Source of the DNA: Planctopirus limnophila DSM 3776
GTDB lineage: Bacteria > Planctomycetota > Planctomycetia > Planctomycetales > Planctomycetaceae
Assembly (NCBI RefSeq): GCF_000092105.1
Contig: NC_014148.1
Location: forward strand, 3,900,001 to 3,932,000
DNA: 32,000 nt
Direction: 5' to 3'
In this document: piece after piece, positions 4,317-21,403 of the stretch
How positions within the stretch are numbered: the first letter of the stretch is position 1
Layout: every line of letters begins with the position of its first letter
Notes under the pieces: model-generated
Database searches by the model: none
Told to the model about the DNA's origin: nothing
The model's input: only the letters and a program-made list of their open reading frames with translations
Program-made: the position numbers and the translations under genes

Positions 4317-5666
4317 ATGCCCTCTTTTCTGCACGTAGCCGACCTGCATCTCGACAGTCCGAGAAGTGGACTTTCCCGCGATGCCAGTGCCCCGGTTTCT
4401 GAAATTCAGCAGGCTCCTCGCAGAGCACTCGAGCGATTGATTGACGAAGCCTTAAGGCGAAAGGTTTCCGCAGTCGTGATTGCTGGCGATCTTTACGATG
4501 GCGACTGGAAAGACCACCAGACGGGTCTCTTCTTCGTGAGGCAGGCCCAGAAGCTGGCCGACGCCAGGATCCCGGTGGTGATGATCACCGGCAATCACGA
4601 TGCCCAGTCAGTCATCACCCAGCAGCTTCCTTTACCCCCCAACGTGAAAGTTTTAAGTGTCGATGCACCCGAGACATTCCTGCTCGAGGATTGCGGTCTG
4701 GCACTGCATGGGCAAGGTTTCAAGAACCGGGCCGTGCCGCAGAATCTGTCGGCGAACTATCCCGCTAAAATCAACAGCCTCTTGAACATAGGGCTCCTGC
4801 ATACGTCGCTGACAGGCTTCGAAGGGCACGAAGTTTATGCCCCCTGCAGCTTGAGCGATCTGGCCCGGACCGGCTACGAATACTGGGCCTTAGGCCATAT
4901 TCATAAGCGGCAGGAATTTCCTCTGGCCAGTGGCGGGATGGCGGTTTTTCCAGGAAATCTGCAGGGGCGCCATATTCGTGAATGCGGGCCCAAAGGCTGC
5001 GAAATCATCGAGTATCAACCGAATGGAATTCTCCAGCGAGAGTCAATTGTCCTCGATGTCTTTCGTTGGGAACTGCTTTCGATTTCAGTGGACGGATTAT
5101 CTTCCCGAGACGAAATTCTCGCACTGATTGAAGATCACCTGCGCGCTTTTCGCACTTCCGCAGATCCCCAACCACATGCCCTGCGCATCGAACTGATGGG
5201 GGCCACAACTTGTCATGGTCAGCTCATCGACCGCCAGCGGGAACTTCGTGCCGAAATTCAGAGCCTGGTGGTACAGTCAGGAAGTGGCAACTGGTGGCTC
5301 GAAGACCTTTCGCTCCGCACAACTTTTCCAGAGGCATCCATCGATGCCGCTTTGACCAGTGCTGCCTCTCAGGAATTGCTGGCATTGGCCCGGTCGGAAC
5401 TGCAGGCAGCCCATTCCTCTCCCGAACTGCATCGTCTGATGCAAAACCTGACTGAGGATTTGCGGAAGAAGCTCCCTGCGGAAATCTCGTGGAGTGATGT
5501 CCTTGGCCCCACCTCTTCGCACGCTGCAGGCTCTACGACAAACCAGGCATCAACTAATGCTGGAATCGAGTGGAGTCCACTCCTGGAAGAATCTTTAGCA
5601 CTTCTTTCGGCTCGGTTGGAGCAGCCCCAGACACAAGTCTCCACAGGTCGAAAGGGGCGGTCATGA
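4317..5666 (+). CDS. SbcD/Mre11-family metallophosphoesterase (YhaO/SbcF-like DNA exonuclease subunit)
   Basis: Calcineurin-like phosphoesterase motifs in canonical order: VADLHLD, AGDLYDG, TGNHD, GLLH, GHIH. The stop overlaps the start of the next gene (ATGA at 5663-5666). Confidence 0.85.
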   Translation: MPSFLHVADLHLDSPRSGLSRDASAPVSEIQQAPRRALERLIDEALRRKVSAVVIAGDLYDGDWKDHQTGLFFVRQAQKLADARIPVVMITGNHDAQSVITQQLPLPPNVKVLSVDAPETFLLEDCGLALHGQGFKNRAVPQNLSANYPAKINSLLNIGLLHTSLTGFEGHEVYAPCSLSDLARTGYEYWALGHIHKRQEFPLASGGMAVFPGNLQGRHIRECGPKGCEIIEYQPNGILQRESIVLDVFRWELLSISVDGLSSRDEILALIEDHLRAFRTSADPQPHALRIELMGATTCHGQLIDRQRELRAEIQSLVVQSGSGNWWLEDLSLRTTFPEASIDAALTSAASQELLALARSELQAAHSSPELHRLMQNLTEDLRKKLPAEISWSDVLGPTSSHAAGSTTNQASTNAGIEWSPLLEESLALLSARLEQPQTQVSTGRKGRS

Positions 5667-8600
5667 GGATTGCTTCACTCCATCTGGAAAATGTCGGCCC
5701 ATTCCGCAAGACGACCTGGAACCTCGATCCATCCCGAGGTTTTCAATTGTTTATCGGGCCCAATGAGGCGGGCAAAAGTACCGCACTCAGGGCCCTGGCT
5801 GATGCTCTGTACGGCTTTCCTCATACCTTGCCGGATGGTGAGTCCTTTCAACCTTATCGGGATCGTCGTGTTGGTCTCTCTTTGATCAGCGATGATGGCC
5901 AGCAGCTCCGTTTTCTCCGCCGCAAAGCAACCAAACAGGCCTTGCGTGGCCTGGATGACAAAACGGTGGTCGACGAAGCCGAATTGAGCCGGTGGCTGCA
6001 ACAGGTGGATCGTACCCGCTTTGAACAGTTCTTCGGGCTTGACCATGCCCGGCTGGTTCAAGGTGGTAACGAACTGCTCAACTCGAAAGGAGATATCGGG
6101 ACCATCCTCTTCGCAGGTTCTCAGCTACAAGGAGCACCGCAGATTCTTGAAGCGCTGTCCCAGGAGGCAGCCAGCCTGTTCGCCCCTCGAGCACAGAATC
6201 CCCCCATCAACAGCCAGATCCGCCAACATGCCGACCTGATTGCCAAAGTCAATCAGTTGATGGTCAAGCCACAGGCCTGGCGCGACGTTCAAACCGAGTT
6301 TGATCAGGCAAGTACCACCAAAGACAAGCTGCAGTCACAACTCAAAGAGCTGGAAAAACGAGTCAGCCATCTGGCGAGGCTCAATGCCGCCTGTACTCCG
6401 GCCCGGCAACTTCGGCAGATCAGGCAGCAACTGAAAAGCTATGCCGACTTGCCCATGCTCGATGAAGAATTTTTTGAAAAGGTGGAAACTGTTCGCCAGA
6501 AGATCTTCAGTGCTGCTCACGAGCAACGAGTCAAGCTCGACGAATTGCAGCAATTGAAATCCACCCTCGATCAATTGCCTCCTGTCGAATCGATCTGGCT
6601 GGAACACGAAAGCACCATTCGCGAACTCGTCGAAACACGCGGATCAATTCAAAAGGCCCGCAAAGACACTCCCAAAGTTCAAAAAGAGCTGCTTCTGGCA
6701 AAAGCCAGACAACAGACCATCCTCGATCAGTGGAAATGGGCTCCTGCGGATCAATCCGCTTCGATCCCCAGGAGACTCCGTAGAGAGCTCGAAGCACTTC
6801 AGGCCGAGTGGCTGGTACTCTCCGAACGCAAAAAAGCACTGACAGATCGTGCACAGGCCCTGGCCAAAACCACAGCCAGAATTGCCAGCGAACCAGTCGA
6901 TCGTCGAGAGACGTTGCGGCAAGAGCTGGCGAAAACTCAAGCGACGCTGCAAACAGCCGCTTCACTGCTCGAAGCCGATCAGAAGATCAGAACTCTCCGC
7001 ATCAGCCAGACGACACTCGAACGAAACGTCGCCCAGGCCTGGCAGAAGCTTGAACCACAAACGCTCATGAGCCAGTGGGCGGAAGCACACACACTTTCGG
7101 AACAGATCGCACTGCTCTCGTCAACGAACATTCCCCCTCACGACGTGATCGAACAGTTCCGCGAAGAAATCGACACCTGGCACCAACAGGTCCTCTCAGC
7201 GGTGGCCGCTCTCGAAAAAGCACGGCTCGAACAGTCACACGCCATCGAAGAGCGGCAACGACTGCGCACATTGATTCTGCAAGCCACGCCCGAAGATCTG
7301 GCCGCCGCTCGAAGTGAACGTGACCAGCTCTGGGCAAAGTTCCAGCAACAACTGGAAAGTGAACCGCGACCAGACCATCAGCAGCTGATCGAACAGGCTC
7401 AGATCGTGCAGCAATCCATACAGCAGGCCGATCAACTGGCTGATGCACTCTTCAAGCAGGCCACCAATGTCTATCGCGATCAAGAGCTGGCCCTGCGAAC
7501 GGAGCAACTCTCAACTTCCATCCAGCAACTGCAAGAGCGACTCACCACCCAGAAAGATCTCGAAAGCCAGGCAGTTCATCGCTGGGAAAACTTGTGGAGT
7601 TCAACAGGCATCTCGCCCCGATCCCCTCGCGAAATGCTGGTCTGGTCTCGCATGGCACACGAGTTGATCGAACTCGGCGAAAAGCTCGCGGCAATCAACG
7701 ACGAACTCACCGCTCACGATCAACAGTGCGAAATCTTCTGCCACCAGTTCGACACTTCACAGAGCATCGAGTCCGATGCTCCCGAACCTCAACCTTTGCC
7801 CACAATTCATGCACGGCTCAAGATCGACGACCAGAACCTGCTGGAAAGAATTCGTGCTGCGGACCTGCTCGAACTCGACAGGCAACGTCTGAATGATGAT
7901 CAGACAGCCTATCAACACGATCTCGAAGCCTGGCAATCGACCAGCCAGGAGTGGGAACTCCGGTGGAAAGCCGCCATCCTGGCCACTGGCTGGGAAGAGT
8001 CGACCACACCCGATGAACTCGCGGAGTTGTTAGAACAGTTTCAACTTCTTGAGCAGACACAGAACTCAATTCAAAAGCTCGAGGAGAGACTCTCGGGTAT
8101 GGCCGAAGATGAATCGACCTTTCAGGAACAGATCTTCGATTTTGTCCGCACGTCGATTCCCCTTGAAGCCGAGAACCTGATTGCCAGCTTCCCGCCCGTT
8201 GAACTTTCGCAAGCCATCGAGACTCGACAAAATTCCGCCCGCGTGCAGCAGGCTCAATATCAACAGCAGCAGGCCACTATCGAGCGTCTGACTGCCGCTG
8301 TGGAACAACTGGGTGATGCACTGGAACTTGCCCAGGAACAACTGAACCAGGCTCTCAGGCAGGCCAGGCTCAAAGAACCCTCCGAATTGACGGCACTGCG
8401 AGAGAAATGCCGCCTTCGTAGAAAACTGATCGATGATGCCGTTCACCACGAACTCGAACTGGCCCGGCAATGCGGTACCAATTCGGTCGAAGAGCTGATT
8501 CAGCAGGCACTCGAAGTCGACCCAGCGACACTCCCTCCGGAAATTGAATCACTCGGACAGGAAATCAGTTCCTTAAGAGAGCAATTGGGACAAGCGACGG

Positions 8601-9220
8601 CGCGCCTGGAAGCCGCCCGCCTGGCATTGGCAGGCATGAGTGGAGAATCGAAAGCGGCGGAATTGAATGAAGAAGCCAGTGATCTTCGCCGGCTGATTAT
8701 ACAGGATAGCCGGGAGTATCTGCGATTAGTGACTGCCGCCGAGCTCTTGCGATCCGCGATCAAAACCTATCGAGAGCAGCATCAGGGGCCGGTCTTTGCC
8801 CTGGCTGCGTCGATCTTTACACGCATGACGGGCGGTGTGTTTGAAGGTTTGCAGATTGATTCCGAGGATGGTTCTCAAGAACTGCTGGTGCGTTGTCACG
8901 ATGGGCGCACGCTGCGAGTGACTGAACTTTCGACAGGCACCGCCGACCAGCTCTTTCTGGCCATCCGGCTGGCGTGGATTGAAGAGTACCTGCATCAGCA
9001 CCCCCCCTTCCCGCTGGTGCTGGATGATGTGCTGGTGCAGTTCGATGATGAGCGCACGCGTTATGCCCTGGAGGTGCTGGGAGAACTCTCTCGCCGCACT
9101 CAAATCCTGTGCTTCACGCATCATGAACACCTCAAGGAACTGGTCGAACAGACGCTGGAACCCGACCAATACGAGATCCACTCCCTCCAGCGCCTTCGCA
9201 CACCTCCTTTCAAGAGCTGA
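5663..9220 (+). CDS. SMC/Rad50-like AAA ATPase with long coiled coil (YhaN/SbcE-like), 1185 aa
   Basis: I prefer the internal ATG at 5663 (MRIASLHLENVGPF...) because it overlaps the upstream stop as ATGA and sits just before the N-terminal Walker A GPNEAGKST. About 900 aa of heptad-like Q/E/L-rich sequence follows. The C-terminal end has an ABC signature-like LSTGTADQL, Walker B LVLDDVLVQFDD and H-loop FTHH. Confidence 0.85.
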   Translation: MRIASLHLENVGPFRKTTWNLDPSRGFQLFIGPNEAGKSTALRALADALYGFPHTLPDGESFQPYRDRRVGLSLISDDGQQLRFLRRKATKQALRGLDDKTVVDEAELSRWLQQVDRTRFEQFFGLDHARLVQGGNELLNSKGDIGTILFAGSQLQGAPQILEALSQEAASLFAPRAQNPPINSQIRQHADLIAKVNQLMVKPQAWRDVQTEFDQASTTKDKLQSQLKELEKRVSHLARLNAACTPARQLRQIRQQLKSYADLPMLDEEFFEKVETVRQKIFSAAHEQRVKLDELQQLKSTLDQLPPVESIWLEHESTIRELVETRGSIQKARKDTPKVQKELLLAKARQQTILDQWKWAPADQSASIPRRLRRELEALQAEWLVLSERKKALTDRAQALAKTTARIASEPVDRRETLRQELAKTQATLQTAASLLEADQKIRTLRISQTTLERNVAQAWQKLEPQTLMSQWAEAHTLSEQIALLSSTNIPPHDVIEQFREEIDTWHQQVLSAVAALEKARLEQSHAIEERQRLRTLILQATPEDLAAARSERDQLWAKFQQQLESEPRPDHQQLIEQAQIVQQSIQQADQLADALFKQATNVYRDQELALRTEQLSTSIQQLQERLTTQKDLESQAVHRWENLWSSTGISPRSPREMLVWSRMAHELIELGEKLAAINDELTAHDQQCEIFCHQFDTSQSIESDAPEPQPLPTIHARLKIDDQNLLERIRAADLLELDRQRLNDDQTAYQHDLEAWQSTSQEWELRWKAAILATGWEESTTPDELAELLEQFQLLEQTQNSIQKLEERLSGMAEDESTFQEQIFDFVRTSIPLEAENLIASFPPVELSQAIETRQNSARVQQAQYQQQQATIERLTAAVEQLGDALELAQEQLNQALRQARLKEPSELTALREKCRLRRKLIDDAVHHELELARQCGTNSVEELIQQALEVDPATLPPEIESLGQEISSLREQLGQATARLEAARLALAGMSGESKAAELNEEASDLRRLIIQDSREYLRLVTAAELLRSAIKTYREQHQGPVFALAASIFTRMTGGVFEGLQIDSEDGSQELLVRCHDGRTLRVTELSTGTADQLFLAIRLAWIEEYLHQHPPFPLVLDDVLVQFDDERTRYALEVLGELSRRTQILCFTHHEHLKELVEQTLEPDQYEIHSLQRLRTPPFKS

Positions 9221-9254
9221 AAACGCCTCATTCGACTCTGGCAATAGCTTGTGA

Positions 9255-9413
9255 ATAGAGATTCCAATACGTGAACCTGTCGCTCAGTCCGAGTTGGTGG
9301 GTTGCGCAAAGCCTTACCCCACCCTGATTGCCGCTATGAGAAAGCTCCTGACCATCCTCAACGCCATGATTAAAAATCAAACCCCATGGAAAAATCCCGC
9401 ACCAACAGCTTGA
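9255..9413 (+). pseudogene. C-terminal remnant of an IS110-family transposase
   Basis: My own translation of the frame ending at TGA 9411-9413 gives ...LVGCAKPYPTLIAAMRKLLTILNAMIKNQTPWKNPAPTA*. The (A/C)MRKLLTILNAM..(Q/G)TPW tail is the characteristic C-terminus of IS110/IS1111 transposases. An in-frame stop at 9252-9254 leaves only about 50 codons, so it is a fragment. Confidence 0.6.
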
Positions 9414-9559
9414 TTCTCAAGACAGTCGCTACCTGTCTATTCTTACGCGAAGGCGCGAAGATCTCGAAGGAATGGCGACAACGTGTGGGTGCCTCCAGCG
9501 AAAACATGCCCGGTCATTTCATGCTGCAGTTCAGCATGCATTTAGCTGCCTGAATGGAA

Positions 9560-9587
9560 TTGACAGCGAAAACCCACAAGATAACCT
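9560..9587 (+). promoter_or_regulatory. Candidate sigma70-like promoter for the TIR gene
   Basis: TTGACA (9560-9565), 16-nt spacer, TAACCT (9582-9587), about 45 nt upstream of the ATG at 9632. The -10 element matches TATAAT at only 3 of 6 positions, and promoter rules for this lineage are uncertain. Confidence 0.25.
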
Positions 9588-9631
9588 AAACGCTGTTCAC
9601 TTAGATAAGATTTTAACGTTTGGGAAAGGCA

Positions 9632-10603
9632 ATGAATTCAGCCAATCGAAAGAAGGTCGCAGTAATCACTTCATATGTTCAGCAATCATTTTCCGAAAGT
9701 GATTGGTACGCGATTGGGCAGCTTACAGGTCAACTCAACACAATCTCAGGTCACTCGAGGCTCTTGCGAGCGTTGAATTTTGGAGACGACGACTATTCTG
9801 GTTGCGCAGCGGAAGTTCTTGACAGAATCTTCTCCGCAAATGAATCGGCCATTGATGAGGTGATCGACCACTTCGACATCGACCTTTGGTACCAGCAGAA
9901 AAGTCCTGAAAAGTACAACAGACTGTTCTCCGCCGCGGCCTCGTCCTCTGCGGACTTTTGGAAAAGTGGTTTTCTTAAGTTATTCGTTAGCCATCTTTCA
10001 TCCAATAAGACTCGAATGTCTGCACTCAAAGCTGGGCTGGCGACTTGGGGAATTTCAGCCTTCATCGCACACGAAGATATCGAGGCATCTCGTGAATGGA
10101 GGGATGAAGTCGAAGCCGGCTTGGAAACGATGGATGTGCTTGCGGCCGTCGTAGAACCAGGATTCAAGGAATCAGATTGGTGCGTACAAGAGGTCGGTTA
10201 CGCCCTAGGCCGCAAAATCGATGTAATTCCACTACGAGCAGGATTAGACCCTTTTGGTTTCTTTGGAAAGTTTCAAGGAATTCAGATCAAAGGGCGACTT
10301 CCCGAGCAGGTGGCATGCGATATTACACAAGTTCTTCTCAAGAAACCTCAATATAGAGAGAGGCTCATCCAAAGCATATCAATAGCCTTTTCAACACTGG
10401 CTTCCGAGAAAAAGATCGAAAATATTAACACGCTAGACGAATGGTCGATTCTTACCGACATTCAGTTGAAAACTGTGGTCGAGCAAGCCGCGATGTCAGG
10501 GGCTGAGAAGCAAGCGGCGAAGAATCTGATCGCTCGCATTGGAGCATTCAAAGCAGCAGAAGTCGAAGTCAACCTGCCTGACGACGATGACATTCCGTTT
10601 TGA
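9632..10603 (+). CDS. TIR-domain protein (ThsB-like candidate) with unassigned N- and C-terminal regions
   Basis: Central region LFVSHLSSNKTRMSALKAGLATWGISAFIAHEDIEASREWRDEVEAGLETMDVLAAVVEPGFKESDWCVQEVGYALGRKIDVIPL fits the bacterial TIR pattern (F-[IV]-S-[HY]...; F.D.dI..g..W...I; then S.WC..E). The candidate catalytic Glu is in WCVQE (codon 10190-10192). I prefer the ATG at 9632, preceded by GGAAAGG, over the TTG at 9620. Confidence 0.75.
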   Translation: MNSANRKKVAVITSYVQQSFSESDWYAIGQLTGQLNTISGHSRLLRALNFGDDDYSGCAAEVLDRIFSANESAIDEVIDHFDIDLWYQQKSPEKYNRLFSAAASSSADFWKSGFLKLFVSHLSSNKTRMSALKAGLATWGISAFIAHEDIEASREWRDEVEAGLETMDVLAAVVEPGFKESDWCVQEVGYALGRKIDVIPLRAGLDPFGFFGKFQGIQIKGRLPEQVACDITQVLLKKPQYRERLIQSISIAFSTLASEKKIENINTLDEWSILTDIQLKTVVEQAAMSGAEKQAAKNLIARIGAFKAAEVEVNLPDDDDIPF

Positions 10604-10754
10604 CAGCGAAGCGAATCACGTTGAGTGGAATACGATAGTTTCAATTGGCGGCGTATCGCTGGTCACTGGAATTAAATAGCGGACGGCATCTAAGTTTTTT
10701 GCGATCCATCCAAATGAGAATTCTCTTCTAAGAAATGCAAAGGTATTTGAACAT

Positions 10755-12080
10755 ATGGCGGAGCGCAGACATCGTTTTGAAGGCTTGGTGCCAGAAATGC
10801 TCATACAGAGTATCCGCGATCATCGGTGCGTGCTTTTCGCTGGCGCCGGGATGTCAGCCCAAGCTCAAACTCAAGACGGCACACGCCTCCCGACTTGGAG
10901 TGCTCTGCTCGAGCGAATGCTGAACTGGTGTATCGATCATCGAGTTCCACTTCGGGCTGATCCAGCAGAGTTCAAAGAGGTACTGAAGCGTGGGAGGTTG
11001 CTCGTTGTTGCTCAAGAACTTCAGCAGAGTCTCGGTAGCCAGCTAAACACTTGCTTGTCAGCAATTCTCCATACCGGCAAGACAACACCAAGTGAAGCAC
11101 ATCGTTTGGTATCGAGAATTGATTGGGTTGCTGCGCTTTCGTCTAACTATGATGGACTGATTGAAGGGGCCTATGCACTTGAAACTGGTGGCATCGTCCC
11201 ACCAGTTTTCTCTCCTGCCGGAATTGGTCAGGCTCTCGATTGCCTTCGAAGTAACCGCTTCTTCGTCTTGAAAGTGCATGGCGATGTCAATCTCCCCGGC
11301 TCAATAGTGTTAAGCAACCGAGACTATTCAAGACTTCTATATTTGAGCCCCGGCTACCGATCTTTTCTTGAATCTATCTTTTCAAACTATACCGTTCTAT
11401 TTGTAGGATTTGGCGGGAATGATCCAGATCTTGATGGAATAGTGGATAGACTATCCACAATCTACGAACATAGTATCGGACAGCACTTCATATTGATTTC
11501 TGAGGATGAATTTACTGCGCTCGAACGTAGGCGTCTACTTGAAGACAAGCGCCTAGACTGCATTACGTATCGACGGGATGCCTCACATTCACAAGTCGTC
11601 GAATTTCTTTGGGCGCTGTCACAGCGGTTAACTTCAAAGGCAGTCGTTAACACGCCGTTTGCTAAAGACGAGAACAAACAACGCGCGTTCATATCTGGGA
11701 GTTCTCGACAAATAGGCATGCTTCGCGAAGTGGCCGAGATAGCAAGGCAGGTAGGCTTTGATGTGTGGTACTCCGAGACAGAGATCGCTGTGGGCGATCG
11801 TTTGGTTGATGTGATCGCCAAGTGTATCGACGAGGCGGACTGTTTCATTGTTATTCTGTCAAAAGAGTCAGGGGAGTCTTCTTGGGTTCACTTTGAAATC
11901 GGCAGGGCCTTTGGAGCGCACAAAAAGGTGTTTCCAATCCGCATTGGTGATGCTCCTGTACCCTCAGACCTGATGAACGTTGTCTACCTGCAAGTCAGCG
12001 AGCCACCATTTAACGCTGAAGATAAAGAAAAAATCATGATGAACCTGGCGAGATTTCTTAAGCCCACGAAATCTAGCTAG
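10755..12080 (+). CDS. SIR2-family (SIR2_2-like) NADase domain fused to a C-terminal TIR domain
   Basis: N-terminal part: CVLFAGAGMS (Rossmann glycine loop), LPTWSALL, SSNYDGLIE (Asn131, codon 11145-11147), VLKVHGDV (His175, codon 11277-11279) and LFVGFGGNDPDLD, which are the defining motifs of ThsA/DSR-type prokaryotic SIR2 domains. C-terminal aa ~310-415: RAFISGSS...GFDVWYSETEIAVGDRLVDVI...ADCFIVILSKESGESSWVHFEIG, a TIR pattern with the conserved Glu381 (codon 11895-11897). Confidence 0.8.
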   Translation: MAERRHRFEGLVPEMLIQSIRDHRCVLFAGAGMSAQAQTQDGTRLPTWSALLERMLNWCIDHRVPLRADPAEFKEVLKRGRLLVVAQELQQSLGSQLNTCLSAILHTGKTTPSEAHRLVSRIDWVAALSSNYDGLIEGAYALETGGIVPPVFSPAGIGQALDCLRSNRFFVLKVHGDVNLPGSIVLSNRDYSRLLYLSPGYRSFLESIFSNYTVLFVGFGGNDPDLDGIVDRLSTIYEHSIGQHFILISEDEFTALERRRLLEDKRLDCITYRRDASHSQVVEFLWALSQRLTSKAVVNTPFAKDENKQRAFISGSSRQIGMLREVAEIARQVGFDVWYSETEIAVGDRLVDVIAKCIDEADCFIVILSKESGESSWVHFEIGRAFGAHKKVFPIRIGDAPVPSDLMNVVYLQVSEPPFNAEDKEKIMMNLARFLKPTKSS

Positions 12081-12283
12081 GCACTCACCTTCCGCGTCAG
12101 GCCCACCGCTCGCTTCCCACACTCCCTTGAACTCCACCGTCTTGACGCAACATCCCATCCAGCCAACCCGTGGCATTCCGCTTGCCGAGTACGATATACT
12201 TGGTCTTTCTGAACGGATTGTCATGATGGGCTGAGCGTCTGTTGGTCGTGTTCGCAGTGGCGGGATGGTCACGGGAGGGGAGC

Positions 12284-13954
12284 ATGGAGGAGCGTTCGAG
12301 GCTGCCGATCAGCATGCCGTCGTTTTTGACCGATTCCCGCGTGCTGCCGAACTCCATCGCGGCGGAGCAGCTTGCCGCCGAAAGACAGGCCACAGAGCGA
12401 CTTGCTCAGGAACAATCCCCCGCCCGGCTTGGGGTGGCCTGGCGGGAGTTGCTGGCGGTTCTGCTGCTGGTCGTTCTGGGCGATCTCACCCTCTACCGGG
12501 GCCACGGGTTTGGCGGGTATGCCCTGCTGCTCGCGGCGGCTCCGCTGGCACTGCTCCTGGGTGCCGCCCGGCATCAACGCCCCTGGCAGGTCCTCGCCGC
12601 CACGGTCATGATCTGGGGAGCCGCCCTCCGGCTGGCGTGGTGCGGCAACTGGCTCGCCTTCGCACTCGGTGGCGTACTCCTCATCTGCCTTTCCACCAGT
12701 CTTGCCGGTGCCGGGATGTATTTGGGAGATGTCCTCAGGTGGCTGGCTTCGTTCATTCCCAGTCTCTTTCGCGGCCTGGCCGATTACGAAGCGACCTTCC
12801 GTCAGCGGGTGAGCCTCCGCTGGGGATTGCCGGCCCAGGCGATCCTGTGGGCCTACCTCCTCCCGCCGATTTGCGCCGTGATCTTTCTCGGGCTGTTCAT
12901 CCAGGCCAACCCCGATGTCTCGCTCTGGGTTCAGCAACGCCTGCTCTCCTTTCAGGAACTCTGGTCGCAGGTCTGGTCAATCATTGGTTCTCCCTATCGG
13001 ATGGGCTTCTGGCTGATCTGCGGCTCCGTGGCGATCGGACTCATGCGGCCGCACCTGATGACCCTCTATGAGGTCTTTCAGACAGAACCATTGGAAGACT
13101 TGAAGGTTGATAACACATCGCGGACCGATCTCTACCCCGCCTATCGCAATACGATCCTCGTGCTGATTGTCCTCTTCGCGATGTATCTCGTTTTTGAATT
13201 CGTGACGATGTGGACGCGGACCTTCCCGCCGGGCTTCCACTATTCGGGGTATGCGCATGAAGGGGCCGCCTGGCTGACAGTGGCCTTGGCGCTGGCGACG
13301 ATCATGCTGTCGATCATCTTCAATGCCTCGATGATGACCGACCCGCGCATGCCCGCACTGCGGAACCTGGCCATGATCTGGGCGGCAGAGAACATCCTGC
13401 TGGCGCTGGCGGTCTACAACCGGCTCTTAATCTATGTCGGCTTCAACGGCATGACGCGAATGCGGGTCGTGGGGATATTGGGTGTCACCAGTGTTCTGGC
13501 GGGAGTGGTGCTGGTGATGATCAAGATTTCGCGGGGGCACAGCTTCGGCTGGCTGCTCAAGAATCAGATCTTCGTGGTGGCTGTCGCTGCCTACCTATAT
13601 GCCGTGCTGCCAGTGGATGGCTGGGTAATGACCTACAACGTGCGGCAGGTGCTGGTGGGCAACCTTCCACCCAGCGTGCAGATTGCCCACCATCCCACCA
13701 CGACCGAAGGCTGGCTGGCACTGCTCCCCCTGCAACAGGCCGAGAACCAAGTCATTCGCGAAGGGGTGGTCGAAATGTTGACCAATCACGAACGCCGCCT
13801 CAAAGACGTAACGCCCATCGACTGGACGGCCCGGCAACTGGCGGACGAACAGTTCCTGCGAGCCGTGGCACTCCCTGAAAACGATAGCTTGCGAAAGCCG
13901 ATCAAGCCCGGCGCGGAAGACCGGTTTCGCTCGTTTTCGTTTCAGTGGTATTAG
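12284..13954 (+). CDS. Large polytopic membrane protein (possibly DUF4153/DUF4173-like, from memory only)
   Basis: At least 10 hydrophobic helices. I prefer the ATG at 12284, preceded by GGGAGGGG, over the TTG at 12242. G+C is very high (43/60 in the sampled line 12481-12540), and this produces long spurious ORFs in other frames. Confidence 0.7.
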   Translation: MEERSRLPISMPSFLTDSRVLPNSIAAEQLAAERQATERLAQEQSPARLGVAWRELLAVLLLVVLGDLTLYRGHGFGGYALLLAAAPLALLLGAARHQRPWQVLAATVMIWGAALRLAWCGNWLAFALGGVLLICLSTSLAGAGMYLGDVLRWLASFIPSLFRGLADYEATFRQRVSLRWGLPAQAILWAYLLPPICAVIFLGLFIQANPDVSLWVQQRLLSFQELWSQVWSIIGSPYRMGFWLICGSVAIGLMRPHLMTLYEVFQTEPLEDLKVDNTSRTDLYPAYRNTILVLIVLFAMYLVFEFVTMWTRTFPPGFHYSGYAHEGAAWLTVALALATIMLSIIFNASMMTDPRMPALRNLAMIWAAENILLALAVYNRLLIYVGFNGMTRMRVVGILGVTSVLAGVVLVMIKISRGHSFGWLLKNQIFVVAVAAYLYAVLPVDGWVMTYNVRQVLVGNLPPSVQIAHHPTTTEGWLALLPLQQAENQVIREGVVEMLTNHERRLKDVTPIDWTARQLADEQFLRAVALPENDSLRKPIKPGAEDRFRSFSFQWY

Positions 13955-14801: not shown

Positions 14802-16727
14802 ATGAGTCGTCCTGCTGAATCGCCTACTCCCGAAGAAATCTCGCCGGTCTTTCGACTGAGTGACAAGACCACGCTCTTCCCGGTCATTCACGAGAGCGGT
14901 GATTTCTCCGTCGCTATTCGCCGGTTTTTACTACACCACAGCTTCGATTGCCTCGCTGTGCCGCTGCCACCTTCCTTTGCCGAAGCTGTCGAGCAGGCCA
15001 TTCTGCAATTGCCTTCGGTTTCGATTGTCCTGCAGCGGGAAACCGCCATTCCGACTGTGAGATCGTGGACACCACCTGCTGAGACGCGGGATGACGATGA
15101 ACAGCCGGAATTTTTTACCCGTGCCGCCAGCTATGTGCCGGTTGAACCTTGCCAACCAGTCATTGCCGCTCTTCGTGCAGCCATGGAAGAACGGATTCCC
15201 CGGGCATTCATCGACCTCGAAACCGATCACTTTGAATGTCATACCGCCGTCTATCCCGATCCTTACTCACTCAAGCATACGACTCCTGAAGCGTTTGCTG
15301 CAGCCATTCTCCCTGCGATTCCTCCACCACCGGGAGAACAAGCCTACGCCCGCATTCATACCATGGCTCATCGCCTGCACGAACTCGAACAGCGGTACAA
15401 CTCGATTCTCTGTATCTGCTCGCTGACAGATTGGCCATGGATTCGCAAAGCGTACCAGGATCGCCTCCCCCAAGTGACAGACGACCAGGTGGAATCGGTC
15501 GAAACGTTTGCAGTCACTCCGGAAACACTACATTTCATGATGGGTGAGCTGCCCTATATCACCGGTCTTTATGAGCGGGCACGAGCCGAGTTGGAATCCG
15601 ATGAGAACCTGAGCATCGACGGCGTCAAAACCATGCTGCTCGCGACACGCGATGAATATCGCGAAGACCTGGGTTCCCGCGCACGCAAGATTACCCCTAA
15701 GCTTCTCAAGACGTACTTTCAGTATGTCCGTAATCTCACACTGATTCAGAAACATCTCACTCCTTCGCTCTATACGCTGATCTCAGCGGCTCAGCAGATT
15801 GCTGGAGATCTGTTTGCCGTGCAACTGGCCGATGTGGCTCAGCAGTACGGCTATCCACCTCTGGACGGTGTTCCCCCTTTGCGCATGGGCATCAATAAAG
15901 CCGCCCTGCCGGATGGAACTTTCTATGGCATGAAAACGCGTCTGCCTGGTCAGACCCGGGTCTGGTGTACCCTAAAGCTCACACCCAAGCCACCTCAACT
16001 CCAGCAGCAGGATTGGCAGTCGCGATGGAATCCATTTCGCCAGTGCAGCTGGCCACCAGAAGATCTGGCGATCGAGAAATTCCGCACGCATATCAAGGAT
16101 TCTGCAATCGCGTTAATGGGTGCTGATCTGGCCCGCAGTGAAAAGTTCACAACCAGTTTGAAGGATGGTCTCGATATGCGCGAGACGCTTCGCAACTGGC
16201 ATTCGGGAGAGTTGTATGTTCGTATTAATCCGCCCGCCCGCGGGAATCTCGATTGCGTGATTATGCTGTTTGATTCCCCCGCCGACCCGCGCACTTATCC
16301 CTGGCGGGTGACGTGGCATGCCGAGCATCACGATGAATCGACGCTTTCACTCTTTGCGACCGATTACCGCGCCAGTATGCAAGGCCCGGGGATTGGCATG
16401 GCGACTTATGGCGGTGCCATGTTTTTATTTCCGCCCCGGCCGATTCCCGATATCTGGCGGTCGAGGCATTTCGATCATGCCGACACTCTTGAAGAGCGGT
16501 TGATTATGGCGGCTTGTCATTACTCGCGGGAAAAGCATATCGCCATGCTCAGCCCCCTTCCCCCCGGGTTGGCATGGAAGAAGATTGCCCAGCGCTACGG
16601 CAAAAAACTGATCCACCTGCCCCTTTCGAGATTCAGCCAGGAGACAATCGAAAAGCTCCGCGTCTTCCATGTACTTAATGGAACCAGCGTTCGCAGCTAC
16701 GCCGCTCATTTTATCCGCAAAGGCTGA
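14802..16727 (+). CDS. Large conserved hypothetical protein, 641 aa; N-terminus is TraB/GumN- or DUF5682-like by pattern only
   Basis: Long uninterrupted ORF with protein-like composition. The N-terminal TLFPVIHESGDFSVAIRRFLLHHSFDCLAVPLPPSF and later IPRAFIDLE resemble the H-containing strand, helix and 'PD-vvavE' layout of TraB/DUF5682 families. No catalytic assignment is possible. I prefer the ATG at 14802 over the TTG at 14796. Confidence 0.7.
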   Translation: MSRPAESPTPEEISPVFRLSDKTTLFPVIHESGDFSVAIRRFLLHHSFDCLAVPLPPSFAEAVEQAILQLPSVSIVLQRETAIPTVRSWTPPAETRDDDEQPEFFTRAASYVPVEPCQPVIAALRAAMEERIPRAFIDLETDHFECHTAVYPDPYSLKHTTPEAFAAAILPAIPPPPGEQAYARIHTMAHRLHELEQRYNSILCICSLTDWPWIRKAYQDRLPQVTDDQVESVETFAVTPETLHFMMGELPYITGLYERARAELESDENLSIDGVKTMLLATRDEYREDLGSRARKITPKLLKTYFQYVRNLTLIQKHLTPSLYTLISAAQQIAGDLFAVQLADVAQQYGYPPLDGVPPLRMGINKAALPDGTFYGMKTRLPGQTRVWCTLKLTPKPPQLQQQDWQSRWNPFRQCSWPPEDLAIEKFRTHIKDSAIALMGADLARSEKFTTSLKDGLDMRETLRNWHSGELYVRINPPARGNLDCVIMLFDSPADPRTYPWRVTWHAEHHDESTLSLFATDYRASMQGPGIGMATYGGAMFLFPPRPIPDIWRSRHFDHADTLEERLIMAACHYSREKHIAMLSPLPPGLAWKKIAQRYGKKLIHLPLSRFSQETIEKLRVFHVLNGTSVRSYAAHFIRKG

Positions 16728-17066
16728 ACTTACCCCAGTCGCTATTATGTCCCAGAGAAGTCAGGCCCTTCGTTGAAGCGCAGGTCGGCCTGATGTGCTA
16801 CTTTTGTCGCTTGAAGCGAATATCTCAGGCGATCTTCGTTCAACGTTTCTAAGCAAGACATCACAATCGCTCATTATTTTCTTTCCCGTATACTTCTGAT
16901 ACACCTTTCAATACCCGAGCATCACTCATTCGTCGTAAGATTTCGAGAATGTCATACCAATCCATTGAACCACATCTTCGTACCGACCACAGCGGTGCCA
17001 ATCGAGATTAATCAGGAAGAACGCGTTGAGACTTCTTGAGACAAACACTATTTCACGAATTATTAC

Positions 17067-18566
17067 TTATCGATAGATCTGGCAGATCCTAAGCAGACAC
17101 AACAGAGGGTCGTCCGCTGAAAGTTTATCTATCCGTTCTATAACCTCTGAATCAATTGGAACACAATCCTTGAGAACATTAAGAACCTGGAAATACTCTA
17201 ACTGTTGGTACAGGCAGAATCTCAGTAATCGAAAACGAAGTGACTGATAATAAAAATGCCACGATTTCAGTCCAGAACGAAGCACTGGGTCACGAATGAG
17301 ATGGCGACGGATCTCATCACCATCCAGAGCAATGTAATGACCACACTTACTTAACCACAGTTGTTCAATTTTGACTTTTATCGCCTGAAACCAAATAGTC
17401 CCCTTATCCCGCAATATTTCCAGACATAGAAGCGTATCCTGCGGATTAATCAATAACTGTAATAGAAGTTCGTCAACCATTTCATTCTGGAGCGTCTCAT
17501 TCTCGTATTCCATTTCAAAAGCGACTTTAAGGCACATTCGGCATAGAGATCGAACGGATTGTGATGCCTTCACGATAGATGGGTTCGTGAAACTCAGTTG
17601 CTCAGAGCTTATAAGAAGACAATCTGCACGATCCAAAAGATGATCACCATAAAACCCACTAACAGTAAACTCACTCAGAGCACTTTTACAGTGTTGAATA
17701 AGCTCGTCTTTCTGAACTGGTTCATAAACAATCAACATCTCCAATAAACAGACAATGATAGCTAACCAATAAGAACAGTCATCCACAAGCATTTCATCAA
17801 GTCGATGAAACTCTTGAATAACTATTTCGTCTTGATCCCTCTTAAAATACAACTGCCATCGCACTCGCAGAAGCTGTGTTTGAAGTGTACGAAACGCAGG
17901 ATCCAATATCAGCTTCCAAAAATCTCTTCCTGTGGTTAATTCGGGGTGATTCGAACACTCCCTCGTCAACAGCCGTTGAGACTGTAAGCTCAAGCCATAC
18001 TTCAATGCATAACTCAACAGCAGATTCAGAGATGTCGTCGATGAATCTAAATGCGGCTGAAGCGTCAGCAACCAGTATCTTTGCAGCATCTCCCGCTCAA
18101 TATGAGGATGAGTCAGACTTCTTCGCGAAAGAACTTCGTAAGCAAGATCGACTTTCCCGGATTTCGCCAATTGCCACGGATCACTATCAAGACATGACAG
18201 ATATGAATGATCTGCGTCCTTGACAGAAGCTTCCATACCTCTAAAAGCATCTTTTGAATCACACTCAAGGATAACTTCATCTTTAAATGGACGAATCATA
18301 TCAGGAGTCTGCATTTGCTCGCCGAGAAGAAGAGCAAAATCGTCTGATCGTTTTTTCGCATCAGCATAGGGAAGAAGTACCTCATACGCCTTCCGAATCT
18401 TCTGAAAGGCCTCAGCGTCGATTTCAGGCCGAAACCGCTTAATCAGCTTTGAATAGACCCGCTTTAGATCACCACTTGAAAATGATCGTCCCATCCCCAT
18501 TAACTCCCAGGGATTTTCTGGCCACTTCGAGAAATCATCAGGGAGCGAGTGAGCATCGGTACCCAT
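17067..18566 (-). CDS. J-domain-like protein, module 2 (HPD replaced by RPE), DjlB/DjlC-like size
   Basis: N-terminal NPWELMGMGRSFSSGDLKRVYSKLIKRFRPEIDAEAFQKIRKAYEVL aligns to DnaJ helices I-III (DYYEILGV...IRKAYKRLAMKYHPD...FKEIKEAYEVL), with RPE (18423-18431) at the HPD position. About 430 aa of helical C-terminal region is homologous to the paralog at 19767-21272 (EREMLQRYWLLTL, DPWQLAK and others). I prefer the ATG at 18566 over the GTG at 18578. Confidence 0.8.
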   Translation of the reverse strand: MGTDAHSLPDDFSKWPENPWELMGMGRSFSSGDLKRVYSKLIKRFRPEIDAEAFQKIRKAYEVLLPYADAKKRSDDFALLLGEQMQTPDMIRPFKDEVILECDSKDAFRGMEASVKDADHSYLSCLDSDPWQLAKSGKVDLAYEVLSRRSLTHPHIEREMLQRYWLLTLQPHLDSSTTSLNLLLSYALKYGLSLQSQRLLTRECSNHPELTTGRDFWKLILDPAFRTLQTQLLRVRWQLYFKRDQDEIVIQEFHRLDEMLVDDCSYWLAIIVCLLEMLIVYEPVQKDELIQHCKSALSEFTVSGFYGDHLLDRADCLLISSEQLSFTNPSIVKASQSVRSLCRMCLKVAFEMEYENETLQNEMVDELLLQLLINPQDTLLCLEILRDKGTIWFQAIKVKIEQLWLSKCGHYIALDGDEIRRHLIRDPVLRSGLKSWHFYYQSLRFRLLRFCLYQQLEYFQVLNVLKDCVPIDSEVIERIDKLSADDPLLCLLRICQIYR

Positions 18567-18665
18567 TATTACCTGCACGCCAGAGGCACCATCACATTAC
18601 GAAAACACAAACTAACTGCACCATACTGACACTAAGACTTGAACCACTATCAATCTGGGAAAGGA

Positions 18666-19472
18666 TCAACAAAGCCAGATAAACAGTACCGAACCTGCCA
18701 ACAAAATGATCGCAACAAAAACAACACAAGTCTTACTTACTACAAACTCCTTTTTGCGATGAGTCCAGGTGCCCCCCCATTCCGGATCAATGACATCAGG
18801 AAAATATTTGCGATGCCAATGGCTTGGATTGTCCGAATGTAATAACTCGCCAAACCAGTCTCCACCAAGCGATGCGAGCTTCGGATCAATCCTTCTCAAC
18901 TTTTGCGACTCAGCCTGCCACTCCATCGGCTTATCAAAGAATACATCGATTTTCTTGCGATAGAAGTCCCCCTTCTCGGTGGGCCACGTGACATACGAAT
19001 TCAGGATACATTTGCCCAAATACTTGAGGTGCACTGATCCGAGATGATTGATTTCAGAGTTGATATCGAGCCCGCGTTCAAGATGTTCCAGCAGTCGCTT
19101 CAAGCGTAGGTGTGGCTGACACAAAGGCCTCAACCGCTCATACTCCCGTTTACGATCCTTCGGAGGGTAACCTAAATAGCGAGAAAAGAAACTGCGAAGT
19201 TCCACCTCAACCTGGGCTTCATTGAGCTGCTCCCAGTGCGATCGATCAGTCGGCGTCCATAATGTCTCCGGCTTTCCCGCCAGATACTTAACGGCATGAT
19301 CTAATGCCTCATTACTTGTAAATCCAGATTTCTCCAACGCGCTTAAAGCAACGGCTTGTATATCATCCACTTCCGCTCCTGTTTCCAGGCCCAGAACAGA
19401 CCTCCCCCAGGCGAGATGGTGCTCATCGATCACAAAATTGTCTCTGGTTTCAGGTAGAGGATCGTTATCCAT
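18666..19472 (-). CDS. Tail-anchored hypothetical protein, module 2 (paralog of 21404-22210)
   Basis: 268 aa. A soluble, mostly helical body is followed by a single C-terminal TM helix (CVVFVAIILLAGSVLFIWLC) at the extreme end. Roughly half the residues are identical to the module-1 copy (AVKYLAG.PETLW, EYERL.PLC.PH.RLKRLL.HLERGL, TWPTEKG.FYR.KI, DP.LASLGG.WF.ELL). Confidence 0.75.
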   Translation of the reverse strand: MDNDPLPETRDNFVIDEHHLAWGRSVLGLETGAEVDDIQAVALSALEKSGFTSNEALDHAVKYLAGKPETLWTPTDRSHWEQLNEAQVEVELRSFFSRYLGYPPKDRKREYERLRPLCQPHLRLKRLLEHLERGLDINSEINHLGSVHLKYLGKCILNSYVTWPTEKGDFYRKKIDVFFDKPMEWQAESQKLRRIDPKLASLGGDWFGELLHSDNPSHWHRKYFPDVIDPEWGGTWTHRKKEFVVSKTCVVFVAIILLAGSVLFIWLC

Positions 19473-19766
19473 TCTGATGAACTTTCATGAATCGATAATT
19501 GAGATTGCTTTCAGCAAAGAACACTCCGACATGATTCCTTATACTATTACCTCAACTTCCCTCATCGCGCTGGTAAGTTTGTTGTCCACTCAACAAGGTT
19601 CTAGATTGCATTTTTTATAAAACTTACTGATCGTTGGGACTCTTTAACACTTTTCTACTTCACTCCCCGTAGTGTACCCTGCATTCAAGCTACATTACAA
19701 TCCGATAAATAGCGGCATATTCCCCATCATATAAGCTTGAGAAGACGATCATCGACAGGGCTCTTT

Positions 19767-21272
19767 CTAAATACCGATCTGACATGCCTGAACCAGGCTG
19801 CGCAGGGGTTTATCTTTGAGCAACATGTCGGCCCGGGGTGTTGTCGCTTTATTGGAGATTTCGATCATCTGCAGTACAGGGACCAGTTTTGTCATGTCAA
19901 TACAGTGCACGAGACAGAATCGCAGGACGCGTCCTCGCAATGAGTTGTAGCTGAATTGCGATGCGGACATCAGACCCATAAGAACCGTATCGCGCTGGGC
20001 CTCGCTTTTCAGTCCCTCAAATTCAAGGGCTTCGTACTGTGAATATTCTTCATACCAGAGTTGATAGATCGCTTGACTGAGTATCTGCAGCCAGGGTGCA
20101 CCTTTTTTCAACAGCTCATCCAGGCACATCAGTGAACTCTGCGGGTGATTCACAATCTGATCGATCAGTGGCAACAAAATCTCCCGCCTGCGCGGGCTTT
20201 CGATATGTTCCAACTCAGTAGCGACCTCCAGACAGCGACGATAAAGAAAACGGATCGATTTAGAGGTTCTGACGAGTGATGAAGGCGAGCGAAAGAAGTC
20301 ATGGTAATTCGATATCAGATAGTCTGCCCGATCAAACAATTCCTGTTGATGAACCCCTTGTGATTCCAATTCTTTCAGAAGGGTCTGGCAGCGGTCAAAC
20401 ATCGGCTGACGCAAACGGGGATGATAGACCACCACCAGTTCCAGCAGTTGGATCACAATCGTTAACCATTGAGCAGGATCGTCGAAATACTGCGATTCCA
20501 GTTCTTCAAACTCCTGCAGCACAACTTCATCGCCGTCGTCTTTGAGAAGCCCTTTCCACCTCAGACGTAACAACGAGAGACGGAAACTCTGGTTGTAGCG
20601 GCCTGAGATCAGCTTCCAGATCTGGTTTTTCATCGCCAGTTCCGGCCGGTTCGACACTTCAGCCAAGAGCAATCGCTCCACCTCATCACTCAATCGATAA
20701 GTGATGGCGAAATTCAGAAGTTGATCATAGGCCGTTGTCGAACGATCCAGCTCGGGATGAAGTGTCAGCAACCAGTAGCGCTGCAGCATTTCCCGCTCAA
20801 AATGAGGTCTCGTAAAACGTCTTCTGGCAAGTTCGGCATACGCCTTCTCATATTCACCCGCCTTCGCCAGTTGCCACGGATCGACATCTCGGTGAGCCTG
20901 CCGCCGATGGTGGGATCTCTGGGATGATGATTCATGTCCCGCGTCGTCATGTTCAGGAGTCTCGGCCGAATGATCTTCTGCCGAAGTGCCATCATCCTCG
21001 ACGGATTTCTCATCCGTTGTTTGAAGATGATTCCATATCAGATGGGCCACGGCGGCAGTGTCCGCATCGGCATCGGCGTAATGCTGCAAGGTTTCATACG
21101 CCTGCCTGACTTTTTGAAATGCTTCCGGTGCCGATTCGGGGCGATATCGTTTAATTAACCGCGAGTACGCCAGCTTTAACTCTTTTTTGGTAAATGATCT
21201 TTCCATCCCCAGAATCCGCCAGGGATCTTGAGGCCATTGGGAAACATCGTCCGGTAAAGAGTCCATATTCAT
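19767..21272 (-). CDS. J-domain-like protein, module 1 (HPD replaced by RPE), DjlB/DjlC-like size
   Basis: N-terminal DPWRILGMERSFTKKELKLAYSRLIKRYRPESAPEAFQKVRQAYETL has a J-domain helix II, loop and helix III pattern, with RPE (21135-21143; I verified the codons cgc ccc gaa on the minus strand). An acidic, His-rich linker is followed by a helical domain homologous to 17067-18566. Confidence 0.8.
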   Translation of the reverse strand: MNMDSLPDDVSQWPQDPWRILGMERSFTKKELKLAYSRLIKRYRPESAPEAFQKVRQAYETLQHYADADADTAAVAHLIWNHLQTTDEKSVEDDGTSAEDHSAETPEHDDAGHESSSQRSHHRRQAHRDVDPWQLAKAGEYEKAYAELARRRFTRPHFEREMLQRYWLLTLHPELDRSTTAYDQLLNFAITYRLSDEVERLLLAEVSNRPELAMKNQIWKLISGRYNQSFRLSLLRLRWKGLLKDDGDEVVLQEFEELESQYFDDPAQWLTIVIQLLELVVVYHPRLRQPMFDRCQTLLKELESQGVHQQELFDRADYLISNYHDFFRSPSSLVRTSKSIRFLYRRCLEVATELEHIESPRRREILLPLIDQIVNHPQSSLMCLDELLKKGAPWLQILSQAIYQLWYEEYSQYEALEFEGLKSEAQRDTVLMGLMSASQFSYNSLRGRVLRFCLVHCIDMTKLVPVLQMIEISNKATTPRADMLLKDKPLRSLVQACQIGI

Positions 21273-21403
21273 CAGTGATTTCAGTTGAATTGTTGTGAAT
21301 CGTCTTTACACGATCTGCCATAACTATATAGATCGCCGATCAATCTTCGCAGATCATTGTTTATCGAATTGTTATCATTCGACAGCACTCCTTGATGCGT
21401 CAG

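Follow-up and report, generated by a model that had tools for sequence, protein, structure and literature searches.

To our knowledge, all characterised Thoeris types share one signalling order, in which a TIR enzyme produces a small molecule that is perceived by a dedicated sensor domain (such as SLOG or Macro) of the effector. In type I Thoeris, the effector ThsA joins an N-terminal SIR2 domain to a C-terminal SLOG/STALD domain, which binds 3' cyclic ADP-ribose (3'cADPR), and the TIR protein ThsB is an obligate neighbour. The present analysis concerns a gene in which a TIR domain (TIR_2) is carried instead of this sensor, namely Plim_3018 of Planctopirus limnophila DSM 3776, located in a stretch of 32,000 nucleotides (contig NC_014148.1, positions 3,900,001 to 3,932,000; hereafter the window, to which the window coordinates below refer). 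Judged by its sequence, Plim_3018 is a defence-type SIR2_2 sirtuin with a C-terminal member of the TIR_2 family. It is tentatively read here, at somewhat short of an even chance, as an abortive-infection effector that would deplete nicotinamide adenine dinucleotide (NAD+) through its SIR2 domain and would be regulated by its TIR via TIR-driven oligomerisation, with optional input from a separate sensor-TIR protein.

ThsA (6lhx, 8bto, 7uxt, 8wc0) is the best match to Plim_3018 in both sequence and fold, sharing the SIR2_2 fold, the GAGxS, NYD and HGD motifs, and the layout of a SIR2 at the N-terminus and a Rossmannoid domain at the C-terminus (about 476 amino acids (aa) as against 441 aa in Plim_3018). 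Full-length ThsA (SIR2-SLOG) heads the Foldseek matches with about 440-515 aligned columns, followed by the sirtuins of KomC, DSR2 and Avs5; since ThsA is aligned end to end, the TIR can be seen to hold the position of its SLOG domain. Pfam assigns aa 128-270 to SIR2_2 (E 2.6e-29; 102.6 bits, cut-off 24.5) and aa 312-417 to TIR_2 (PF13676; E 1.1e-15; 58.6 bits, cut-off 28), with weaker matches of the C-terminal part to TIR, ThsB_TIR and CAP12-PCTIR_TIR, and finds no STALD. The AlphaFold2 model (mean predicted local distance difference test score 86.2; predicted template modelling score (pTM) 0.86) has a SIR2 fold at aa 14-291 and, beyond a short linker, a TIR unit of beta-alpha, flavodoxin-like topology at aa 310-435, the latter built from strand 310-314, helix 317-333, strand 336-338, helix 349-360, strand 363-368, helices 370-387, strands 391-397 and 412-414, and helix 421-435. 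An earlier note on this DNA, made from the letters alone, had proposed the order SIR2 then TIR in a 441-aa protein, with the TIR in the SLOG position of ThsA and no room for a further sensor, and Pfam, AlphaFold2 and Foldseek bear this out; neither Pfam nor the model contains a third domain. The stretch at aa 310-415, for which a SLOG- or CheY-like fold had been considered, is a TIR according to the TIR_2 match, the predicted topology and the matches to AaTir and AbTir.

Both active sites appear to be intact. A profile of 27 family members matched ThsA 6lhx in the search of PDB sequences (8.7e-26), and the alignment brings the NYD and HGD motifs of both into register, which identifies N131 and H175 as the putative catalytic residues of the SIR2 half. 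For the TIR half, the best PDB sequence matches are AaTir 7uxr (6.8e-9) and AbTir 7uwg/8g83; since SSWVHFE (aa 375-381) lies on the DWTNYE of AbTir, W377 and E381 are the likely counterparts of the catalytic pair. Thus, the TIR of Plim_3018 has both the fold and the W-x-x-x-E glutamate of the enzymatic TIRs, and it may cleave or cyclise NAD+. The coordinates of these features, of the upstream gene Plim_3017 and of the islet that holds both genes are collected in Table 1.

Table 1. Features of the SIR2-TIR locus, in window coordinates.
Feature	Position	Strand	Remarks
Plim_3017: AbiJ_NTD5 + TIR_2 + helical C-terminal domain	9632..10603	+	323 aa from the annotated ATG; open reading frame (ORF) opens at TTG 9620 (327 aa)
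Plim_3017 TIR domain	9983..10291	+	Pfam TIR_2; W...E motif at 10178-10192
SIR2-TIR gene Plim_3018	10755..12080	+	441 aa, ATG start, TAG stop; ORF list, 100% identity to NCBI Plim_3018
SIR2 domain (ThsA-like sirtuin), aa 14-291	10794..11627	+	AlphaFold2 secondary structure; ThsA 6lhx/8bto alignment; PADLOC ThsA model; Foldseek (ThsA, KomC, DSR2)
Putative SIR2 catalytic Asn motif N131-Y132-D133, codons	11145..11153	+	Aligned to ThsA TTNYD
Putative SIR2 catalytic His H175 (KVHGD), codon	11277..11279	+	Aligned to ThsA KMHGD
TIR domain, aa 310-435	11682..12059	+	Pfam TIR_2; AlphaFold2 elements; PDB matches AaTir/AbTir
Putative TIR catalytic-site motif W377...E381 (W-x-x-x-E), codons	11883..11897	+	Aligned to AbTir/AaTir W...E motif
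Low-GC islet (only Plim_3017 and Plim_3018)	9221..12241	.	Guanine plus cytosine (GC) of the genes 0.476 and 0.488, against 0.55-0.62 in flanking genes
Intergenic spacer Plim_3017/Plim_3018, 151 bp	10604..10754	.	GC 0.417

The combination of the two domains sets Plim_3018 apart from the described systems that resemble either half. AbTir and AaTir (7uwg, 7uxu, 8g83, 7uxr) share with aa ~310-400 the FISxxS motif of beta-A, the VGD loop and W-x-x-x-E, whereas proteins of the AbTir type have a coiled coil at the N-terminus and lack a sirtuin, the TIR of Plim_3018 being C-terminal to SIR2. On the sirtuin side, DSR2, Avs5 (SIR2-STAND), KomC, SIR2-APAZ and human FAM118B belong to the same SIR2 clade and follow the same logic of an N-terminal SIR2 effector with a C-terminal sensor, and several of the defence sirtuins are activated by filament or oligomer formation; their sensors are STAND NTPases, HEAT/TPR arrays or partner proteins, and in none of them a TIR. 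TIR-SAVED (Cap12), TIR-STING and Cat1 (CARF-TIR) are likewise two-domain proteins with a TIR and higher-order assembly (Cat1 and TIR-STING are among the PDB matches), but these use the TIR as effector and sense a ligand with the other domain, while in Plim_3018 the other domain is a predicted NAD+-consuming enzyme (NADase) and a dedicated ligand-binding domain is lacking. Since Plim_3018 has neither SLOG/STALD nor an obligate ThsB (no more than about a quarter of the SIR2-TIR loci have a TIR gene next to the fusion, as set out below), it should not be filed as Thoeris.

None of the PADLOC or NCBIfam models fits the protein over its entire length: the ThsA models of PADLOC match the SIR2 part only (aa 16-344, aligned to model positions 13-318 of 478), and the NCBIfam equivalogs for DSR1/DSR2 reached 22-25 bits where the cut-off is 1400. 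No description of a 'SIR2-TIR' or 'TIR-SIR2' protein was found in the literature searched, the reviews treating the two domains as separate proteins; likewise, the portions of text and tables covered from a 2025 survey of 29 putative Thoeris types contain no SIR2-plus-TIR effector. In architecture, the SIR2-TIR protein swaps one domain of a well-known toolkit for another, and its interest lies in the specific recruitment of TIR neighbours and in whether a TIR can be a receiver.

The fusion is rare in the sequence collections searched. Among 1.84 billion cluster representatives, Plim_3018 retrieved 164 matches at E <= 1e-30, only about a dozen of which span both domains. The fusion occurs in Planctomycetota, Acidobacteriota, Chloroflexota, Bacteroidota, Proteobacteria and one archaeal metagenome-assembled genome (MAG), and this sporadic distribution across phyla implies horizontal transfer. 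In a search for carriage on mobile elements, plasmid matches covered the SIR2 part only and the single phage match the TIR part only, while PHROGs gave weak partial matches only.

Conservation is unevenly distributed between the two halves. All 95 full-length family members keep N131, D133 and H175 of the SIR2 domain, whereas W377 is kept in 81 and E381 in 82 (86%) of them; mean column conservation is 0.72 in SIR2 and 0.59 in TIR, and the SIR2 half is always the better conserved one (for example, 85% versus 58% in the nearest relatives). Three close relatives of Plim_3018 have alanine at position 381, and a branch from Bacteroidota carries a collinear, degenerate C-terminal domain of similar size with neither the W/E motif nor a Pfam TIR match, its SIR2 being intact. 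Since the SIR2 residues are invariant and the W/E pair of the TIR is lost in some members, SIR2 appears to be the obligatory enzyme, and the role conserved in the C-terminal domain is probably not strictly catalytic; compared with AbTir, the TIR glutamate is dispensable in 14% of the family. Furthermore, 53 related SIR2_2 proteins carry a STAND, TPR, HEAT, pYEATS or STALD module behind their N-terminal SIR2, and this variety argues that the C-terminal slot is a regulatory or sensor slot.

The gene context of the family was surveyed by a scan of species-representative genomes and metagenomes, which yielded 91 loci with relatives of Plim_3018; a census of neighbours, with ORFs called mechanically, covered 29-32 of such loci. 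TIR_2 is the most frequent Pfam family among the neighbours within two positions of the 29 full-length SIR2-TIR genes. A TIR gene on the same strand is directly adjacent in seven of these loci (L007, L008, L009, L011, L022, L087 and L100, as labelled in the census) and stands at position -2 in L101. TIR genes thus occupy 7 of 53 positions at +-1, as against 1 of 198 other positions in the same loci (Fisher p = 9e-5), and 7 of 29 SIR2-TIR loci have one, as against 2 of 53 loci of SIR2 relatives that have no fused TIR (p = 0.008); in the Pfam census of 96 neighbours in the control set, no TIR family is among the top families. The neighbours differ in build: TIR-TPR (L007, the archaeal MAG), TIR-histidine kinase (L008), TIR with a transmembrane segment and a C-terminal domain (L009), an N-domain with TIR (L011), a TIR fragment (L022), TIR with 170 aa (L087), and an N-domain with a CAP12-type TIR, followed by a SIR2-TPR gene (L100). 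All of them, and the TIR at -2 in L101, keep a candidate catalytic glutamate. From these comparisons, the SIR2-TIR fusion is specifically associated with free-standing TIR genes of varied type that are not orthologous to each other.

Several of these loci show features that may be recorded in their own right. On a metagenomic contig (L100:163-5243), three NADase-type genes stand in a row, namely a SIR2-TIR gene (76% identical to Plim_3018), a gene for a 302-aa protein with a C-terminal TIR of the CAP12/Pycsar type and one for an 868-aa SIR2_2-TPR protein. In a MAG of Thermoanaerobaculia (L008:2212-3348), the gene directly downstream of the SIR2-TIR homologue encodes the unusual architecture TIR_2 + HisKA + HATPase_c. 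The SIR2-TIR homologue of a Methanobacteriaceae MAG (L007:4051-7362; 38% identity), with TIR-TPR upstream, implies either inter-domain transfer or a binning error. The closest relative (L101:267-3607; 80% identity) is the last of three genes on the same strand. The first encodes a TIR_2 protein (266 aa) that ends in a hydrophobic C-terminus; the second, the start of which overlaps the stop of the first, encodes a 352-aa protein without a family match; and the SIR2-TIR gene follows, separated by 156 bp, a distance nearly equal to the spacer of the window. Lastly, in a Chloroflexota MAG (L002:4336-7311), a stand-alone response-regulator receiver domain (137 aa) is encoded 45 bp upstream of the SIR2-TIR homologue, and the 398-aa protein encoded before the receiver gene clusters with the kinase-containing neighbour of L008.

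The TIR gene that stands beside Plim_3018 in the window is of yet another type. Pfam finds AbiJ_NTD5 (E 4.4e-32; 110.3 bits, cut-off 26.7) and TIR_2 (E 1e-12; 49.1 bits, cut-off 28) in Plim_3017, leaving about 90 aa beyond the TIR, and AlphaFold2 predicts an all-alpha region at aa 3-98, the TIR at aa 115-237 and an all-alpha tail at aa 239-303. Structural relatives were found by Foldseek for the TIR only (AbTir, SpbK, BtpA), and a profile of the Plim_3017 family, searched against the PDB, gave zero matches at the sequence level. The family has more than 400 relatives, many of them 63-84% identical across phyla, and W183, C184, Q186 and E187 of its W-C-x-Q-E motif (323-aa numbering) are invariant in 25 sampled homologues. 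The architecture AbiJ-NTD5 + TIR, which is exactly that of Plim_3017, was catalogued in 2013 and read as a one-protein, abortive-infection (Abi)-like system of an N-terminal domain and an effector (Anantharaman et al., PMC3710099). The example listed there in Table 2, gi:296123260, has a number within the P. limnophila range and is probably Plim_3017 itself; the paper mentions no SIR2-TIR neighbour.

A fixed two-gene operon of Plim_3017 and Plim_3018 was considered and rejected. tblastn with the whole of Plim_3017 and with its three domains separately found no relative of it beside SIR2-TIR genes in the 91 loci and returned only the fused TIRs; all-against-all clustering of neighbours revealed no conserved partner family across 24 full-length loci. 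Conversely, homologues of Plim_3017 (76-84% identity) have no SIR2-TIR gene nearby in the four contexts examined, where they lie among housekeeping or other genes. As far as the compared loci tell, Plim_3017 and Plim_3018 are evidently each able to exist without the other. The link that the earlier note drew between Plim_3018 and its TIR neighbour therefore gains support at the level of the domain class only (7 of 29 loci) and not for the actual AbiJ_NTD5-TIR family, which was found beside SIR2-TIR homologues in none of the 91 loci. A further point against the specific proposal of the note is that TIR neighbours are lacking for about 70% of the SIR2-TIR homologues; a partner is thus not required. 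The same absence of a conserved neighbour family and of TIR genes from most loci makes it likely that Plim_3018 is autonomous, and it can probably work alone.

These contexts bear directly on whether the two genes of the window interact at all. They could be two single-gene systems standing side by side without cross-talk, Plim_3017 combining an AbiJ-NTD5 sensor with a TIR NADase and Plim_3018 acting as a double NADase, with SIR2 and TIR as two effectors and with direct sensing of a phage component. In favour of this, both families also occur on their own, the genes do not overlap but leave a spacer of 151 bp, proteins of AbiJ-NTD plus effector have been proposed as one-protein Abi systems (PMC3710099), and defence genes tend to cluster in general. 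Over 68 aa, the TIRs of Plim_3017 and Plim_3018 share an identity of only 24%, which rules out an origin by recent duplication of one from the other. Nevertheless, a defence-island effect leaves unexplained why same-strand TIR genes are enriched precisely at the adjacent positions, and the enrichment is specific to those SIR2 proteins that have a fused TIR. The loss of the TIR glutamate in 14% of members, SIR2 being always intact, further argues against a TIR that is an effector of equal rank. Independence is accordingly considered rather unlikely; the neighbour enrichment argues against it in general, and less decisively for the pair Plim_3017/Plim_3018 itself.

A wholly different view would take Plim_3018 as a housekeeping or regulatory sirtuin outside immunity, either a protein deacylase or an ADP-ribosyltransferase, with a TIR-like nucleotide-binding regulatory domain. 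The defence role is drawn from homology and gene context, and the immediate flanks of the islet in the window are not defence genes. Against this, the SIR2 domain falls in the SIR2_2/ThsA/DSR clade of NADases and not with the deacetylase sirtuins, and a defence context is supported by the patchy, cross-phylum distribution with the horizontal transfer that it implies, by the location in a low-GC islet and by the defence-type neighbours in homologous loci (AbiH, putAbiC, an Eco57I-type methylase, SLFN_AlbA_2, Zeta toxin and SIR2-TPR). A non-immune function is thus highly improbable.

In the preferred reading of Plim_3018 as a TIR-regulated effector, the N-terminal ThsA-like SIR2 would be the indispensable NADase, and self-association of the TIR would nucleate an active SIR2 filament or oligomer, the form in which ThsA and other defence sirtuins become active. 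Homo-oligomerisation of the SIR2-TIR protein would suffice in most genomes; in about a quarter of the loci, the window included, an adjacent sensor-TIR protein (here with AbiJ_NTD5) would feed the effector through its fused TIR. The closest solved SIR2 structures are those of filament-activated NADases, namely the helical filaments of ThsA (8bto/8btp), KomC, Avs5 and FAM118B (bioRxiv 10.64898/2026.03.01.708072), and the closest TIR matches in the PDB and Foldseek searches (AbTir, Cat1, SpbK) are structures solved as filaments. Since the nearest sirtuins and the nearest TIRs both form filaments, a TIR-nucleated SIR2 oligomer is the simplest model. The direct observations on which it builds are the architecture, the intact catalytic residues, the asymmetry of conservation between the halves and the enrichment of TIR neighbours; the role in defence, the NADase output, the activation by oligomerisation and the coupling of TIR to TIR we infer from homology and gene context.

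Several points weigh against this reading. Gene adjacency is the sole support for contact between TIRs, and the contact between Plim_3017 and Plim_3018, like the oligomerisation of Plim_3018, is a matter of inference. As proteins of the Plim_3017 type stand alone in the four contexts examined, the pairing in the window could be fortuitous. Solo genes make up about 70% of the SIR2-TIR family, and for these the trigger is not accounted for by neighbour input. The pTM of 0.86 suggests, for the predicted model, that the TIR is packed on SIR2 within one chain and is not free to dock. The census behind the enrichment comprises 29-32 loci only, a few of them closely related. Lastly, the catalytic glutamate is kept in 86% of the fused TIRs, which a role in assembly only does not explain. 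Adaptor TIRs of animals are non-catalytic. The proposal of the earlier note that the fused TIR docks onto oligomers of the neighbouring TIR protein loses ground on this account, since an adaptor for docking only could do without the residue; its retention in most members fits a catalytic contribution or a messenger better than pure docking. No correlation between loss of the glutamate in the fused TIR and presence of an adjacent TIR is visible in the 29 loci, which are too few for a proper test.

A messenger, the main rival of activation by oligomerisation, would bring the locus closer to Thoeris. A small molecule derived from ADP-ribose and made by a TIR would bind the nucleotide pocket of the fused TIR and switch SIR2 on, as 3'cADPR does for ThsA, the source being the adjacent sensor-TIR where present and, where it is absent, the fused TIR of a second Plim_3018 molecule. 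TIR, SLOG and DrHyd form one Rossmannoid clade of domains that bind or process nucleotides (PMC9503650), and Foldseek superposes the TIR of Plim_3018 on the SLOG of ThsA. The pocket residues W377/E381, kept in about 85% of members, fit a ligand pocket; the catalytic glutamate present in all adjacent TIRs and in Plim_3017 (in the family of which it is invariant) is as expected of ThsB-like signal producers; and a constant effector with variable TIR partners resembles ThsA/ThsB. However, no TIR domain serving as receptor for a TIR product was found in the literature searched, and a receptor with a catalytic glutamate would tend to destroy its own ligand. Furthermore, most loci have no separate TIR gene, and homologues of Plim_3017 occur without any SIR2-TIR protein. 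On balance, signalling by such a molecule appears fairly improbable.

Alternatively, the fused TIR may be a receiver without any diffusible messenger, in that diverse sensor-TIRs (AbiJ_NTD5-TIR, TIR-TPR, TIR-histidine kinase, TIR with a transmembrane segment) would activate the common SIR2 NADase by heterotypic co-assembly. This would be a prokaryotic counterpart of the TLR-to-MyD88 relay or of the sensor/helper TIR pairs of plants. TLR-MAL-MyD88 and the plant RPS4/RRS1 TIR pair are conceptual analogues of such coupling between a sensor-TIR and an effector-TIR, and the TIRs of MyD88, MAL and RPS4/RRS1 are among the fold and sequence matches; heterotypic TIR signalling in bacteria is not documented in the literature searched. 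In this strict form, the proposal is distinctly unlikely. If the fused TIR is indeed a receiver, whether by co-assembly or by binding a TIR product, it would represent a new coupling logic for bacterial NADase immunity, and it would become testable whether prokaryotes, too, have adaptor-style TIR-TIR signalling, of which the examples so far come from animals and plants. Without such a role, the SIR2-TIR protein would still be a single-gene NAD-depletion system that PADLOC and NCBIfam do not recognise as a unit.

Within the window, for which ORF annotation extends up to about 25.5 kb, co-transcription of Plim_3017 and Plim_3018 is possible. A scan of the 151-bp spacer found neither a terminator-like nor a sigma-70-like site and is uninformative on this point. 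A search of the islet boundaries yielded one 17-nt direct repeat (88% identity) and weak inverted repeats, indistinguishable from chance. The islet is flanked by a Metallophos + AAA_27 pair on one side and a DUF4153 membrane protein on the other, and no recognised defence systems were found in these flanks. The pair directly upstream (window 4317-9220) encodes a Metallophos phosphoesterase (449 aa) and then a 1216-aa AAA_27/SMC-like coiled-coil ATPase; it resembles a YhaO/YhaN- or SbcCD-like pair, and PADLOC matches it only weakly (mad3 3.5e-9, AriA 3e-6). The DUF4153 gene (window 12242-13954) has a GC of 0.615 and a GC at third codon positions of 0.78; its neighbours are much lower (~0.55), and it contrasts sharply with the adjoining islet. 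Further downstream, at window 16500-21300, lies a second stretch of low GC (0.41-0.47), in which a 268-aa ORF without a match (18666..19472) is placed between genes for two proteins of ~500 aa (17067..18578 and 19767..21272, minus strand), each with an N-terminal DnaJ J-domain as its sole Pfam match; this stretch may be another acquired islet.

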